DNA of 64,000 nucleotides. Source: a phage. The stretch lies in assembly GCA_036436775.1 (NCBI GenBank), contig GCA_036436775.1_3676.1. One strand, given 5' to 3'. Position numbers and translations under genes: made by a program. Numbering within the stretch: position 1 is the stretch's first letter; every line of letters begins with the position of its first letter. The notes beneath the pieces are model-generated. The model did not search any database and had not been told where the DNA came from. It saw only the letters and a program-made list of their open reading frames with translations. This document shows positions 1 through 14,606 of the stretch, piece after piece.

Positions 1-234
1 TATTTTTATACTTTACAATATAATCTTCGTTATCGTTGAATATCCAAAATGGATATTCTGCAAGGGCGGTACTTCCTCTTTCCTTTTTATCCTGGATCTT
101 GTTTACAATTAAAGCCGTAGCAATAGCGCCAATAATAAAACTAGCCCCGCTGATCATGTTACTTTCTCCTTTCATGGTGTTAGTAAATTATCTTTACAGA
201 TGTGGCCCTGCAGCCAGGACCACCGAAAAAATAA

Positions 235-3935: not shown

Positions 3936-4129
3936 TTGTCATCCCCTTTCTTATGAATATAGATGTGTGAGCCTGCCTGTATATAAATTTCTCGACCATC
4001 TTCTGAAAAGATGTGGAATACACGGTCACCTTCATACTCGATACGAGATATCTTCATAATAGTTTTTCCACCTGGAATACGGATCTCGTCACCTACAGCA
4101 ATGTTCCATGCGGATTTAAGCTTAAACAT
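3932..4129 (-). CDS. hypothetical protein (65 aa; start moved to internal ATG)
   Basis: ATG at 4129 preceded by AAAGGAGGG; the longer ORF-track start would overlap the upstream gene by 74 nt. Confidence 0.45.
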   Translation of the reverse strand: MFKLKSAWNIAVGDEIRIPGGKTIMKISRIEYEGDRVFHIFSEDGREIYIQAGSHIYIHKKGDDK

Positions 4130-4367
4130 CAGCACCCTCCTTTGGGAACTTAAACTCTGGCATAGCCATATACGCCACAACAGGGTTGTGATCAAAGTAG
4201 AACTGACCGTTAATTATCCCGGTTTTACTCACATAGTTACCAGATCCTGCAAGAACAACCTCGCAAGCTCCGAAATCTACATTGCCATCCTCATCAGCCA
4301 TGGCTACGATATACTTTCCAAGAGGCATGTTTTTAACGCCGTCTACAAATGTCCACTCTGTGTTCAT
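4122..4367 (-). CDS. hypothetical protein (81 aa)
   Basis: ORF tiling the early array. Confidence 0.5.
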   Translation of the reverse strand: MNTEWTFVDGVKNMPLGKYIVAMADEDGNVDFGACEVVLAGSGNYVSKTGIINGQFYFDHNPVVAYMAMPEFKFPKEGADV

Positions 4368-4376
4368 ACTTTACCC

Positions 4377-4709
4377 TTAAGGTAGCCAGTAAACAATCTC
4401 GCCTTTCAGCTTCATGTCGTTTCCAACATAAATTTCCCAGCCATCCATCTTAGCAACTGTAGGCCCAAAGTCATCAGCACCCCTTACCTCTTTCCAGGCT
4501 CCGTAGTCAGGTTGCCAGATATAGAATCCACCTTCTTTGTCCCATGCTCCGTACACTACGTTTAACAGGTTTCCCATTGCAACAATGGTGGGCCGTGGGA
4601 ATAATACATCTACAGATGCGCCACAATTTCGGGTATCTTTTAAGTTGCAATCCCAAAAGATATCTGCCAGTGTGGCGGCGATAGCTTTACGTCTTTCTAA
4701 TGTTACCAT
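4377..4709 (-). CDS. hypothetical protein (110 aa)
   Basis: ORF tiling the early array. Confidence 0.5.
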   Translation of the reverse strand: MVTLERRKAIAATLADIFWDCNLKDTRNCGASVDVLFPRPTIVAMGNLLNVVYGAWDKEGGFYIWQPDYGAWKEVRGADDFGPTVAKMDGWEIYVGNDMKLKGEIVYWLP

Positions 4710-11222: not shown

Positions 11223-11593
11223 TGATCGGTCTCCCTCTTGTTAAGTCTGAATACTGCAATAATAGCATTCCCAAGGTGCAGTGTCAAGTCATTTCCAAGA
11301 TACCACAGCATCCCACGGTCATCTTTAATGAAAGGGTAACAATCTGGTGCCTTCCAGACATTGTACACTTTCCCAACCTGAAAGAAATCAGGCCCTGTTG
11401 GGATTTTGGTACCAGGCCACACTTGAGATACCTGAACACACTCCACCTGCATAATAACAGGAATAGTCATGGATGTAAATGTTTTTGTTGGTTCTACTAC
11501 CATAAAAGTTTCCTCTTTGCTTAACAGCACCTCCCTGTGCTGATAGTTTACATTAGTGACAATCACCCCAGTTACGACCACACAAGTATTCAC
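11219..11593 (-). CDS. hypothetical protein (124 aa; 5' end uncertain)
   Basis: ORF-track start overlaps polymerase exon 2 by 41 nt, so the true start is probably internal. Confidence 0.4.
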   Translation of the reverse strand: MNTCVVVTGVIVTNVNYQHREVLLSKEETFMVVEPTKTFTSMTIPVIMQVECVQVSQVWPGTKIPTGPDFFQVGKVYNVWKAPDCYPFIKDDRGMLWYLGNDLTLHLGNAIIAVFRLNKRETDQ

Positions 11594-11906
11594 CTGTGAT
11601 CTGGAACGGGACTCCCATCATTTTAGAAGCTTGCCAGAAGCAATGCACCACCATTTCACCTACAGGGCTCCAGATAAGTTCAAGCTTTCCGTCATCGTTC
11701 AGGATAGGATCGTACACCGTGTTTCCGTCTCTGTCAACCACTTCGTTTCCGTCCTCATCCTTGCGTGCTTTTTTGTACTTATGACCGTCGAACACATGAA
11801 GTTTGGCCTCCTGCTCTGCCTTAAATGCTTCCAGTTCTTCAATTGTGTCGAAGGTGTACACAGTCTTATACTTCGGTGTGTCAGGGACTTGAAGTTGGTA
11901 CTCATC
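11553..11906 (-). CDS. DNA polymerase (family A), exon 2
   Basis: Begins DEYQLQV (completes motif C xHDE) and ends GRNWGDCH, the typical Pol A C-terminus (compare T7 ...GPNWAICH); boundary +/- a few nt. Confidence 0.7.
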   Translation of the reverse strand, partial: DEYQLQVPDTPKYKTVYTFDTIEELEAFKAEQEAKLHVFDGHKYKKARKDEDGNEVVDRDGNTVYDPILNDDGKLELIWSPVGEMVVHCFWQASKMMGVPFQITGEYLCGRNWGDCH

Positions 11907-12242
11907 CAATAGTTCAGGTAGGTCGTTAAGCTACCCCGCACCATTACGTGCATAGCCATACGTTTTCACGTAGGATCGGACCATCTCATATTCCTATGAT
12001 AAGCAACCACAGGAATCCTCCCATTTCGACCGCACTTGCTGGTCTACTTCCTTTCGGAATGGCCTCTGAGCGTTCGCTCTTTTGAGCGCTTCGTTGCGGA
12101 TTACCTTGCCATAAGGTTTAGGCTTCCCGCAGTTAAAGAGGTTATTCGACATAGATTACTCTATGAAGCCACAATGTTATTTATGGTAATAAATAATACG
12201 GCGAACACCTTCATCGTACCACCCACGCTTCACCATTTGGTG
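11907..12242 (-). mobile_element. group I intron (ORF-less, ~336 nt) in the DNA polymerase gene
   Basis: Minus strand carries core elements in order: P AACTGCGGGAAGCC (12121-12134), Q AATCCGCAAC (12093-12102), R-like GTAGACCAGC (12038-12047), S GAGATGGTCCGATCC (11974-11988); stop codons in all frames; ends in G. Confidence 0.6.
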
Positions 12243-14606
12243 GTGCATGAGTATCCCAACTAAGTCACACAGCGATGCACCACCATTCTGTTGGTATGCA
12301 TTAAGTAAAGAGTGTTTAGATCGGGTCCAGATAGCATGACCATCAAAAGAGTAGATAAACTTCTTACCAGTTGCTTCCCAGAATTTCTCCAGATCCTCTT
12401 TGCGCCCCTTAAGACCGGGGTTGGCATCCCAAAGCGCATCGATTACCCTTTGTCCCAACTCTGGAGAGATGTCCAGCATATCTGCAACTTTATCTTTTTG
12501 TGCCCCGTACATAACCCCATACGTGATAGGTTTACCGTCGTTACGGGACACCTCTCTACCTGCTACTTTCGTATATGCCTCAGCATTGTTTTGGTGTGCA
12601 TCTCCGTTACTTACAACATCGTAATACAGGCCGTTGTCGAACTCAAAGGCACCCCAAGCCCCGATAAGCTGCTCTAAGTTGGACCCGTCAATACCGATCT
12701 CAAAGTATCCTGGAGGAACACCCCACAAGCTACGCATCTCTTTACCCATAACCACTTTAGGAGATGGTTTAGGCATGTTTGCACAAATACTGTGTTTCTG
12801 TCTGGAAGTGTTTGTCAGCCCAGAACTTTTAGCAGGAAGCTTATGGTCAATCTTCAAACGTGGGTGATTAAGAAGACCAGTATCAACCTTATCCTCCTTG
12901 ATTGGATCAAGGACCGATCTGCGGTTTCGCAATGATAACCACAAGACGATATCTTTAGCCATCTCTCCGTTCAATTTTTCAAGATTCGGACACAGGTGTC
13001 CAAACGTATCTTTCAGTTGCGGAGAAGTAATAAGTGCTCTGGCTTTTCTACGTATTTTCCCGAATACTTCCTTTTTAATCCTTTCAGAGTTAGGAAAGCT
13101 TCGGAACTTGTGCACAGTTGTCTGGAACTTGGCATCAGTTTTGTTCCAGAAGTTGATAATCAGGTCACAATACTCTGACTCTAAAAGCTCGTCCATATAT
13201 GCATATACTCGTGCATCAACATCCGCATCAGGTAGAGCTTTCTTCTTGCTATCTTTAGTTACATCTTTAGTTCTCCACATTGTCGGTAGCCAGCCAGCAC
13301 TGATCAGATACCGCTTAATGTCGTCCTGATTGCTGATTTTCATAGGTATCTTGCAGTCCGGCATTCGCTTCTGCTGTAGATCACTTATTGCCTGATCCAT
13401 CAGCTCTTTAGGCAAAGGGTGGGGTGTGGAAGTGCCCTTAATATAGCCTCTCAAGAAATCAGCCATCTTATCGGGGTCTTTGCAGCCCATCTCTTCACAC
13501 CATTTTATCCCTATCTTGCTGACATCCCCTGTAGAGGTAAATGCTCGCTTAGGCGGGGCTTTGAACTCTAAAGCGCTCATGTCTACAGGATAGCCAAGCT
13601 TATCTTTTAACCATTTCCAACCATTATTAGAGATTGTCCCGTCTTGGTTAAACGGCTTTTCAGGGAACTTGGGCCGCTGAGACATTGACAGCTCTTTTAA
13701 AGGCAGCTGTGGTTCAACACGATCAGCGATTTCTTTCATCCACGCATCGCAACGGTCACGTAAAGCAATAGCTCCATCTATGTCGAAGTATACACCCTGA
13801 CGGGCCTGCAGCTCCATCAGGAAGTGCTGCAGCATGCCTCGACGTAGTGCGTTCTTCCAGGTGATCTTCTTGAACCCTTTCGGCTTCTCTTTGGCTGGAT
13901 CGTACATAAAGTTCTGCATGTCAGATTTGCCGTAGAATACACCTTTTGATTCCGCTACCAGCTCTTTCCAGAGCAGCTCCTGGATGATAACGTCCTCGAA
14001 TACACGATCCACATACTTCCACAACGGAAGATCGCGCCAGTCATCAATTTGAACTTTCTGGTTACCAAGGGCGTAGCCCCATGCCATAAGGCCGTGAGGA
14101 CCAACGGGCTGCATTTTCTTAGTAACCGGGTTGAATACAGAATCCGGACAACCTTTTGGTAAAGGGCGATCAGGCCACAAGATTCGGCTCATCGCCAACG
14201 TATCAAACAGATTAACCTGGTGGTCGTTGATAGTCCCCATACACTTAGGGTCACGGAACATATCAAAATGAATACCGGATAATCTTTCCATCAGCATAAA
14301 GTCATAACTGTAGCAGTTATGGCAGTTCAAAGCTGTTGGTGACCAGTCAGAATTTCCTGTAAGCCAACCTTCCAACTCCGAAAAATCTGCTATGCGAACT
14401 TCAAAATCTTTATAAAGAGTTTTCTTTGCCAGAATAAAGTTCTTAGCCTTCTCTATATCCTCTTCAGAGTAGTGTGTGCGGTCATTTAGAGGAAGGAACA
14501 GCATAAAACGGTTCTTATTCAGCTCTTTAAACAAGCCGCAGTGATAATAAAGATCTAGGTCTTCTAGTAAACCAGAGGCCTCAAGGTCGAAAGACCACAT
14601 ACTCAT
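12243..14606 (-). CDS. DNA polymerase (family A, T7/Pol I-like, with 3'-5' exonuclease), exon 1
   Basis: Exo I FDLEASG near the N-terminus; motif B RNDGKPITYGVMYGAQ; ends ...LVGILMH just before the intron (ORF track reads 22 codons into the intron). Confidence 0.8.

Follow-up and report, generated by a model that had tools for sequence, protein, structure and literature searches.

Among the group I introns described in family-A DNA polymerase genes of phages, those of the T7-like phages PhiI and W31 (Bonocora & Shub 2004; AY769989, AY769990) occupy Pol I site 881 (E. coli numbering), belong to subgroup IA2 and carry an HNH ORF in P6a (PMC3428280). The introns of SPO1, SP82, Bastille and Pf-WMP3, likewise located in phage family-A polymerase genes and associated with nicking HNH endonucleases, are inserted elsewhere, at Pol I site 674, which lies in the fingers and not in motif C (PMC3428280). 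Introns homologous to the one presented here, with the same YYH/DEY site (the slash marks the exon junction), the same P1 and internal guide sequence (IGS) and a homologous core, are found in Certrevirus CB7, phiTE and CR9, Seunavirus SSE121 and Vequintavirus FFH2, but these are 687-843 nt long and have an ORF for an HNH endonuclease within the P6 loop. The CB7 intron, whose HNH gene is CB7_50, is excised from mRNA, as established by RT-PCR and Sanger sequencing (PMC7344957). Escherichia phages LL12, rV5, PDX, navn and others of the genus Vequintavirus have the very same intron (276/276 identical) in the same gene, site and orientation. Only one of these identical-intron phages, LL12 (GenBank MH491969), is annotated with an 'intron-interrupted gene', and the RefSeq annotation of rV5 shows the polymerase as two fragments and places small ORFs in the intron. 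The rV5 paper reports a polymerase of 775 aa and, of introns, mentions that of the terminase alone; the LL12 paper does not mention a polymerase intron (PMC7229145). The element is real, of a known kind and already annotated in a sister phage.

The stretch of DNA analysed here, hereafter the window (64 kb), belongs to a Vequintavirus (rV5-like coliphage) and shares about 96% identity with known isolates; over the polymerase gene and its flanks the identity with isolates of the LL12/rV5 type is about 96-97%, and the window represents a separate isolate. Its family-A DNA polymerase gene lies on the minus strand (14606..11553) and contains one group I intron (table 1). We put at roughly 0.93 the probability that this is an ORF-less group I intron inserted exactly between the codons for the His and the Asp of motif C.

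Table 1. Positions of the polymerase ORFs, exons, intron and intron helices in the window
Feature	Position	Strand	Basis and remarks
Polymerase ORF, 809 aa	12177..14606	-	ORF list
Second polymerase ORF, 118 aa	11553..11909	-	ORF list; start (TTG)DEYQLQV, end GRNWGDCH
Polymerase exon 1, 2424 nt, 808 codons	12183..14606	-	ORF; junction from intronless alleles; aligned with T7 gp5 up to H653
Polymerase exon 2, 117 codons + stop	11553..11906	-	Start GAT GAG TAC (DEYQLQV), end GRNWGDCH and stop
Group I intron, 276 nt, IA2-like, without endonuclease ORF	11907..12182	-	RF00028; precise insertion versus Murica and pangalan; MFE fold; covariation
P1 hairpin	12169..12186	-	Exon CCAU (12186..12183) and intron AA pair with UUGUGG (12174..12169); direct reading, Rfam alignment
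Internal guide sequence CAUUGUGG	12176..12169	-	Its CAUU also pairs with exon 2 GAUG (11906..11903), forming P10
P2 (CAUAG with CUAUG)	12150..12165	-	Compensatory changes in 5/5 pairs
P3	12017..12141; strands 12141..12136 and 12022..12017	-	3/6 pairs compensatory; P4, P5 and P6/P6a inside
P4 (P and Q)	12131..12126 / 12100..12095	-	Covariation read by hand
P5	12123..12103	-	Covariation read by hand
P6/P6a	12094..12070	-	P6 loop is the HNH ORF position in relatives
P7 pseudoknot helix	11979..12064; GGCCA 12064..12060 (R), UGGUC 11983..11979 (S)	-	Covariation
P7.1, GAAA loop	12059..12048 (intron 124-135)	-	Homologue alignment
GUA linker	12047..12045 (intron 136-138)	-	GUAG invariant in homologue alignment
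P7.2	12044..12028 (intron 139-155)	-	Homologue alignment
P8	12015..11991	-	Homologue alignment
P9, GAAA loop	11974..11956	-	Peripheral 3' helix
P9.1	11951..11938	-	Peripheral 3' helix
P9.2	11936..11916	-	Peripheral 3' helix

The Rfam covariance model RF00028 matches 12192..11957(-) over its full length (model positions 1-253), scoring 64.7 bits where the gathering score is 50 (E 4e-14), and relaxing the limit to E<=0.01 brings no second Rfam match in the 64 kb; the MFE fold of the intron recovers the same helices (z = -2.98). The RNA shows the characters of group I introns, namely a U·G pair in P1 at the end of the 5' exon, an omega-G, P10 and a core of P3-P9 with a P3/P7 pseudoknot. In the RF00028 match the elements P, Q, R and S follow in canonical order, P with Q forming P4 and R with S forming P7, as the first-pass annotation of this DNA had read them by eye. 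P7 encloses P7.1, the GUA linker, P7.2, the 3' strand of P3 and P8. Subgroup IA2 is distinguished by two additional helices, P7.1 and P7.2, which are linked by G-U-A and lie between P7 and the 3' strand of P3 (PMC3428280); the P7.1-GUA-P7.2 arrangement assigns the window intron to this subgroup. Its P6a amounts to a hairpin of 5 bp with the loop AAAA, and P5 and P7.1 are minimal too; A89·C113 in P6 (intron numbering) is a non-canonical pair that is G·U in relatives.

Fourteen homologous introns, all at one YH/DE site, were aligned from Vequintavirus, Avunavirus, Certrevirus, Seunavirus and from Vibrio and Pseudomonas phages. Paired cells amount to 99.3% in this alignment versus 36-41% in slid controls, and compensatory changes, with both sides altered, occur in 26 of 50 pairs, P3 and P7 included. 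The peripheral helices P9, P9.1 and P9.2 contribute compensatory changes in 11 of their 16 pairs, and all six pairs of P1 are invariant. These counts refer to hand-defined helices on a MAFFT alignment, from which P4, P5, P6a and P7.1 were left out because indels misalign them; pair counts for these four helices come from hand alignment and not from a tool, the covariation of P4 and P5 having been judged by eye, since MAFFT sets a bulge in the wrong place. The covariance model, the covariation in the 14 homologues, the alleles with a precise insertion and the HDE restored by splicing all bear out the central claim of the first-pass annotation, that the Pol A gene is divided at motif C by a small group I intron that has no ORF.

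The boundaries of the intron can be read from alleles that lack it. In the near-identical phages Murica and pangalan the sequence ..TATTACCAT continues directly into GATGAG (CCAT/GATGAG), which places the DNA breakpoint between 12183 and 12182 without positional ambiguity, and tblastn with the spliced junction returns single-piece matches of 100% identity in intronless phages. Exon 1 ends in ..CGT ATT ATT TAT TAC CAT (..RRIIYYH), its last base U12183 being wobble-paired with G12172 in P1, whereas the intron starts with AAAUAA, producing an in-frame stop two codons past the 5' splice site, and finishes with ..CUAUUG, the omega-G lying at 11907. This 3' end had been located correctly beforehand, as had the 809-aa and 118-aa ORFs with the DEYQLQV start and GRNWGDCH end of the latter. 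The 5' site had been set 60 nt (20 codons) too far upstream, in an intron of about 336 nt reaching to 12242. Splicing would then occur after C12243 and join ..GILMH to DEYQLQV, and the 22 codons following LMH would be junk. Such an LMH/DEY junction is in frame and also forms the H-D-E tripeptide, but the first 20 of the 22 codons are real exon: they encode HQMVKRGWYDEGVRRIIYYH, which is 100% identical in intronless homologues and aligns with the T7 gp5 helix preceding motif C, so that AAA-TAA (12182..12177) is their sole intronic part. Moreover, the Rfam P1 puts the U·G pair at U12183, and with C as its last base the 5' exon would have no wobble pair. Given the presence of those 20 residues in intronless alleles and T7 gp5, we discarded the LMH/DEY junction, whose chance of being right is negligible, and take YYH/DEY as the actual one; with the 5' site moved to U12183, the only anomaly noted earlier, an exon ending in C, disappears.

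The predicted junction of the spliced mRNA is TATTACCAT/GATGAGTAC (also written ..TATTACCAT/GATGAGTACC..), and the spliced ORF encodes 925 aa with zero internal stops, with the HDE of motif C and the ..NW..CH of the C-terminus in one frame. At the protein level ..RRIIYYH/DEYQLQV.. corresponds to ..AWVH/DEIQV of T7 gp5. T7 gp5 chains match the spliced protein across the junction (residues 633-813, E 3e-16), phmmer aligning ..RRIIYYHDEYQL to ..AYMAWVHDEIQV of T7 gp5. The Pfam DNA_pol_A match to the spliced protein (620-822) also spans the junction, with 31.8 bits, slightly below the curated cut-off of 34.3. The junction H/DE aligns with T7 H653/D654; we take T7 D654 to be equivalent to Klenow D882, which would make the site Klenow H881/D882. 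It is the site of the PhiI and W31 introns (Pol I site 881), which are of the same IA2 subgroup and differ in their hosts, podoviruses with T7-type polymerases; this comparison is by published description only, PhiI and W31 records being absent among the matches listed for the window intron.

According to our reading, the polymerase gene would be transcribed as a single pre-mRNA in which the intron adopts its fold of P1-P9.2, the P3/P7 pseudoknot included. The first attack, after U12183 at the U·G wobble set up in P1 via the guide UUGUGG, would come from an external guanosine bound in P7, and the freed 3'-OH of the exon would then attack after omega-G 11907, exon 2 being held by P10 (GAUG with CAUU). 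The product would be the mRNA for one 925-aa polymerase, and unspliced RNA would stop at AAA-UAA and yield a protein of 809 aa that lacks the catalytic Asp. The 276-base intron almost certainly excises itself; that it does so in the window phage we infer from the RT-PCR of the CB7 homologue and the viability of isolates with an identical intron. One might instead regard the polymerase as two associating polypeptides (809 aa and 117 aa), made without splicing around a dead relic RNA in the manner of the split NrdA of Aeh1. Two separate ORFs do exist, with TTG at the boundary of the second, and the CB7 paper describes one HNH-containing insertion, in another gene, that is retained in the mRNA (PMC7344957). 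Such a split would part the His from the Asp-Glu within the catalytic motif, however, and no Shine-Dalgarno-like sequence is seen just upstream of the TTG (..CCUACCUGAACUAUUG). All core helices are intact, moreover, and kept by compensatory change. Polymerases naturally split at this site, which the first-pass annotation would have counted against the intron, are not what homologues display: near-identical relatives are uninterrupted, and the homologous CB7 intron, at exactly the same site, is removed from mRNA (PMC7344957). We consider two polypeptides very improbable and retain the self-splicing intron.

The intron is polymorphic among near-identical Vequintavirus genomes. Of 60 Vequintavirus records, taken as a spread sample from 115, about 30 lack the intron, 12 have the 276-nt form, one has a 328-nt form and about 14 have the HNH form, and every sampled match breaks at CAT/GAT. 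HNH-bearing relatives have their endonuclease gene in the P6 loop at the same insertion site, and Vibrio phage K412 has an ORF-less copy together with an HNH gene that follows shortly after the polymerase gene. The window intron does not encode a homing endonuclease, its only sense-strand ORF being one of 52 aa (11994..12152) that runs across the ribozyme core; it presents the precise-site presence/absence polymorphism of homing introns but not their endonuclease. The element belongs to a mobile-intron lineage and has lost, or never gained, the P6 HNH gene of its relatives.

It is conceivable, if on balance unlikely, that the ORF-less 276-nt intron is still spreading between Vequintavirus genomes and is more than a passive passenger. 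A possible route would be mobilisation in trans by the HNH of sister introns located at this site or a free-standing HNH of a co-infecting phage ('collaborative homing'). Continued spread would fit the intron being 276/276 identical in LL12, rV5 and 241Ecol014PP when the flanking exons differ by 2-4%, as well as its occurrence at >=99% identity in 23 records among the matches listed; the polymorphism, the HNH-bearing relatives and the K412 arrangement just described point the same way. Against it, 11 HNH proteins, either associated with the intron family or encoded beside the polymerase genes of relatives, found no significant homologue in the 64-kb window (best E-value 0.048), and ordinary recombination between co-infecting phages could give the same pattern. 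If the intron does spread, the natural Vequintavirus population would be a tractable system for the association and parting of introns and endonucleases.

The main value of the finding, which opens no new question, lies in annotation. In many rV5-like records, RefSeq rV5 included, the polymerase is entered as a truncated protein, accompanied by a second 'polymerase' fragment and by small ORFs that are spurious, where one spliced enzyme of 925 aa is to be expected, and the junction of 12183 with 11906 corrects the annotation of the window genome. A single intron lineage has repeatedly settled immediately ahead of the catalytic Asp of motif C. It extends across Vequintavirinae and phages of Vibrio and Pseudomonas, in forms that have an HNH gene and forms that lack one, and is a good illustration of the gain and loss of introns and endonucleases. 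A pattern scan of IMG/VR for the P1/IGS 5' end returned 38 contigs; among the 12 of these scanned with Rfam at the gathering threshold, introns were confirmed in 2 only. About 18 of the 38 are polymerase YH/DE (or TH/DE) sites and 4 are candidates with NrdD-like ..H/ contexts, whereas most of the remaining contigs lack an open frame upstream and are probably chance matches.

The two polymerase reading frames described in the first-pass annotation were both found by minus-strand ORF listing, and the group I intron that it had placed between them is borne out by a match to the Rfam model RF00028 (12192..11957, minus strand) covering the full model with 64.7 bits and E 4e-14, the gathering score being 50 bits. 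Even at E<=0.01, a scan of the whole 64 kb returned no other RNA family besides this single match. In the Rfam alignment of P1, exon CCAU pairs with intron GUGG, so that the U·G wobble falls at U12183. When 14606..12183 is joined to 11906..11553, a 925-aa ORF is obtained that reads ..GVRRIIYYH/DEYQLQV.., and the corresponding ..TATTACCAT/GATGAGTAC.. is contiguous in the insertion-free, near-identical phages Murica and pangalan as well as in many others; the 276-nt insertion cannot be slid, because the bases flanking each boundary differ. In tblastn searches, the 200 residues around the junction are found in a single piece with 100% identity in intronless phages, while phmmer comparison with solved structures aligns the spliced protein across the junction, ..DEGVRRIIYYHDEYQL matching ..DGDFAYMAWVHDEIQV of T7 gp5 (E 3e-16). 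Together, these results place the intron inside motif C, after its His and before its catalytic Asp, namely at H653/D654 in T7 numbering, which we take to be equivalent to H881/D882 of Klenow.

The feature is real and the central interpretation of the first-pass annotation is right, with its 5' splice site corrected. The junction originally proposed, ..GILMH joined to DEYQLQV, is off by 60 nt and disagrees with the P1 wobble, the intronless alleles and T7 gp5; the 22 codons after GILMH that had been dismissed as junk include the 20 residues HQMVKRGWYDEGVRRIIYYH, present and 100% identical in intronless phages; and the apparent anomaly of a 5' exon ending in C is gone, since exon 1 ends in U12183. 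The 3' boundary stands as proposed, the intron ending in G at 11907. Because the intron starts with AAA-UAA, unspliced RNA terminates two codons past the splice site.

Coordinates of the polymerase ORFs and intron (window positions) and of the intron helices (intron positions of the two paired strands; window coordinate = 12183 minus intron position)
Feature	Position	Strand	Size	Remarks
Polymerase ORF	14606..12177	minus	809 aa	ORF listing
Polymerase ORF	11909..11553	minus	118 aa	ORF listing; start (TTG)DEYQLQV, end GRNWGDCH
Group I intron	12182..11907	minus	276 nt	start AAA-UAA, end G (11907)
P1	-4..2 / 9..14
P2	18-22 / 29-33
P3	42-47 / 161-166
P4	52-57 / 83-88
P5	60-63 / 77-80
P6	89-91 / 111-113
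P6a	95-99 / 104-108
P7	119-123 / 200-204
P7.1	124-127 / 132-135
P7.2	139-142 / 152-155
P8	168-176 / 184-192
P9	209-215 / 220-227
P9.1	232-235 / 242-245
P9.2	247-252 / 262-267

Homologous introns at the YH/DE site were gathered from 13 other phages: FFH2, JLBYU08 and JEP1 (Vequintavirus), 18-1-2 (Avunavirus), SSE121 (Seunavirus), CB7, phiTE and CR9 (Certrevirus), A5-4 (unclassified Vequintavirinae), three Vibrio phages and SPA01 (Pseudomonas Pakpunavirus). All share the 5' end ..UACCAU/AAAUAA..AUUGUGGC and the 3' end ..AACU(N)UUG/GA(U/C)GA. Their alignment (A3) was built with endonuclease ORFs removed and helices defined in intron coordinates, and covariation was counted for 50 pairs with reliably aligned columns. 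Standard pairs occupy 99.3% of the cells, versus 36-41% with the partner slid by 1-3 columns; changes on both sides occur in 26 of these pairs, and the observed covariation score was reached by none of 500 shuffles. P4 and P5 were read by hand, because a bulged base misaligns both in MAFFT, and found to covary, the former with G-C swapped for U-A and the latter with one pair seen as C-G, G-C, A-U or G·U. MFE folding of the window's intron without constraints yields the same hairpins (z = -2.98). Its P7.1 and P7.2 are joined by G-U-A, the criterion that assigns phage introns to subgroup IA2 (PMC3428280), and a P10 pairing of exon 2 GAUG with guide-sequence CAUU could align the 3' exon.

The polymerase pre-mRNA would undergo ordinary group I self-splicing to yield a single 925-aa enzyme. 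This is the best-supported reading for the window's phage, because the ribozyme is intact and covarying, a split of H/DE over two polypeptides would be absurd, an identical intron is present in propagated phages such as rV5 and LL12, and a homologous intron leaves the mRNA in CB7. The latter, which lies at the same YH/DE site and bears the HNH gene CB7_50 between CB7_51 and CB7_49, is removed from mRNA according to RT-PCR and Sanger sequencing (PMC7344957).

The intron has been recorded before and is of a familiar kind; its value lies mainly in annotation repair. In the LL12 record (GenBank MH491969) it is already marked, under the label 'intron-interrupted gene', and the CDS is joined, whereas RefSeq rV5 shows two polymerase fragments plus small ORFs inside the intron, and the rV5 paper gives a 775-aa polymerase. 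Small ORFs at 11994-12152 and 11699-11959 (minus strand) of the window correspond to rV5 (L002) 3956-4114 and 4149-4409, the hypothetical proteins gp222 and gp221 of RefSeq; lying within the ribozyme core or out of frame across exon 2, they are almost certainly annotation artefacts. According to PMC3428280, the T7-like phages PhiI and W31 were reported in 2004 to have introns of subgroup IA2 at Pol I site 881, with an HNH gene in P6a, a likeness to the window's intron in described site and subgroup. The polymerase introns of SPO1, Bastille and Pf-WMP3 occupy a different position, site 674 (PMC3428280). In Vibrio phage 424E50-1 (L018), the polymerase gene that holds the motif-C intron also has another, distinct RF00028 intron (344-593; 93.3 bits) some 100 nt further upstream.

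All ORF-bearing relatives carry an HNH endonuclease gene in the P6 loop, where the window's intron has only the 5-bp P6a hairpin; homologues of the HNH proteins of this intron family were sought across the 64-kb window and none was found. Among 60 Vequintavirus records, sampled at a spread from 115, about half are intronless and 12 have the 276-nt form; a 328-nt form occurs once and the HNH form in about 14, and the match breaks at CAT/GAT every time. The intron (11907-12182) is 276/276 identical in LL12 (L001), rV5 (L002) and 241Ecol014PP (L004), while neighbouring exon sequence differs by 2-4%. The intron is thus more uniform than its host gene, which suggests that the 276-nt form was recently transferred laterally, though it has no endonuclease of its own. 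Such a transfer may have relied on HNH enzymes acting in trans or on plain recombination.

In Vibrio phage K412 (L009), an ORF-less 254-nt homologue of the intron (701-954) is accompanied by a free-standing gene annotated as an HNH endonuclease (1194-1639), which lies shortly downstream of the polymerase gene; the arrangement is reminiscent of 'collaborative homing'. Synonymous haplotypes occur directly 3' of the insertion site (first 12 nt of exon 2, window 11895-11906; also L003, L005, L006 and L007): GATGAGTACCAA in the window, rV5, JEP1 and intronless Murica, GATGAATATCAG in FFH2 and JLBYU08, and GACGAATATCAG in intronless pangalan. These may represent co-conversion tracts or endonuclease target variation.

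Polymerase exon 1 of 241Ecol014PP (L004, 1486-4878) and JEP1 (MT740314, CDS 69106..72504) contains a 323-aa in-frame insertion after ..NGDAH (window residue 671), starting with CYSGDTQIL and ending with ..VAVCGN, then Cys. The insertion matches Pfam Hint_2 weakly and resembles an intein, housed in the very gene that also bears the intron; it is absent from the window. The 5' end CCAU/AAAUAA..AUUGUGGC also follows a His codon in IMG/VR loci L020, L022, L037 and L044, the ORFs of which end in ..AHDEGYVHFH, ..AHDSGVLHFH and similar and look like anaerobic ribonucleotide reductase NrdD; an Rfam gathering scan of these sites confirmed no intron.

The window comes from an rV5-like coliphage (Vequintavirus) genome, the polymerase region of which (3054 nt) has 97.5% identity to LL12 and 97.2% to rV5. 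Since even the best-matching deposited genomes reach only ~96-97% identity over the window's first 25 kb, it represents one more isolate of a genus that has already been sampled well. Approximately 16 'Campylobacter phage' records (host C. jejuni, among MG065635-MG065690) share 95-97% identity with genomes of rV5-like coliphages, and their names or hosts look doubtful.
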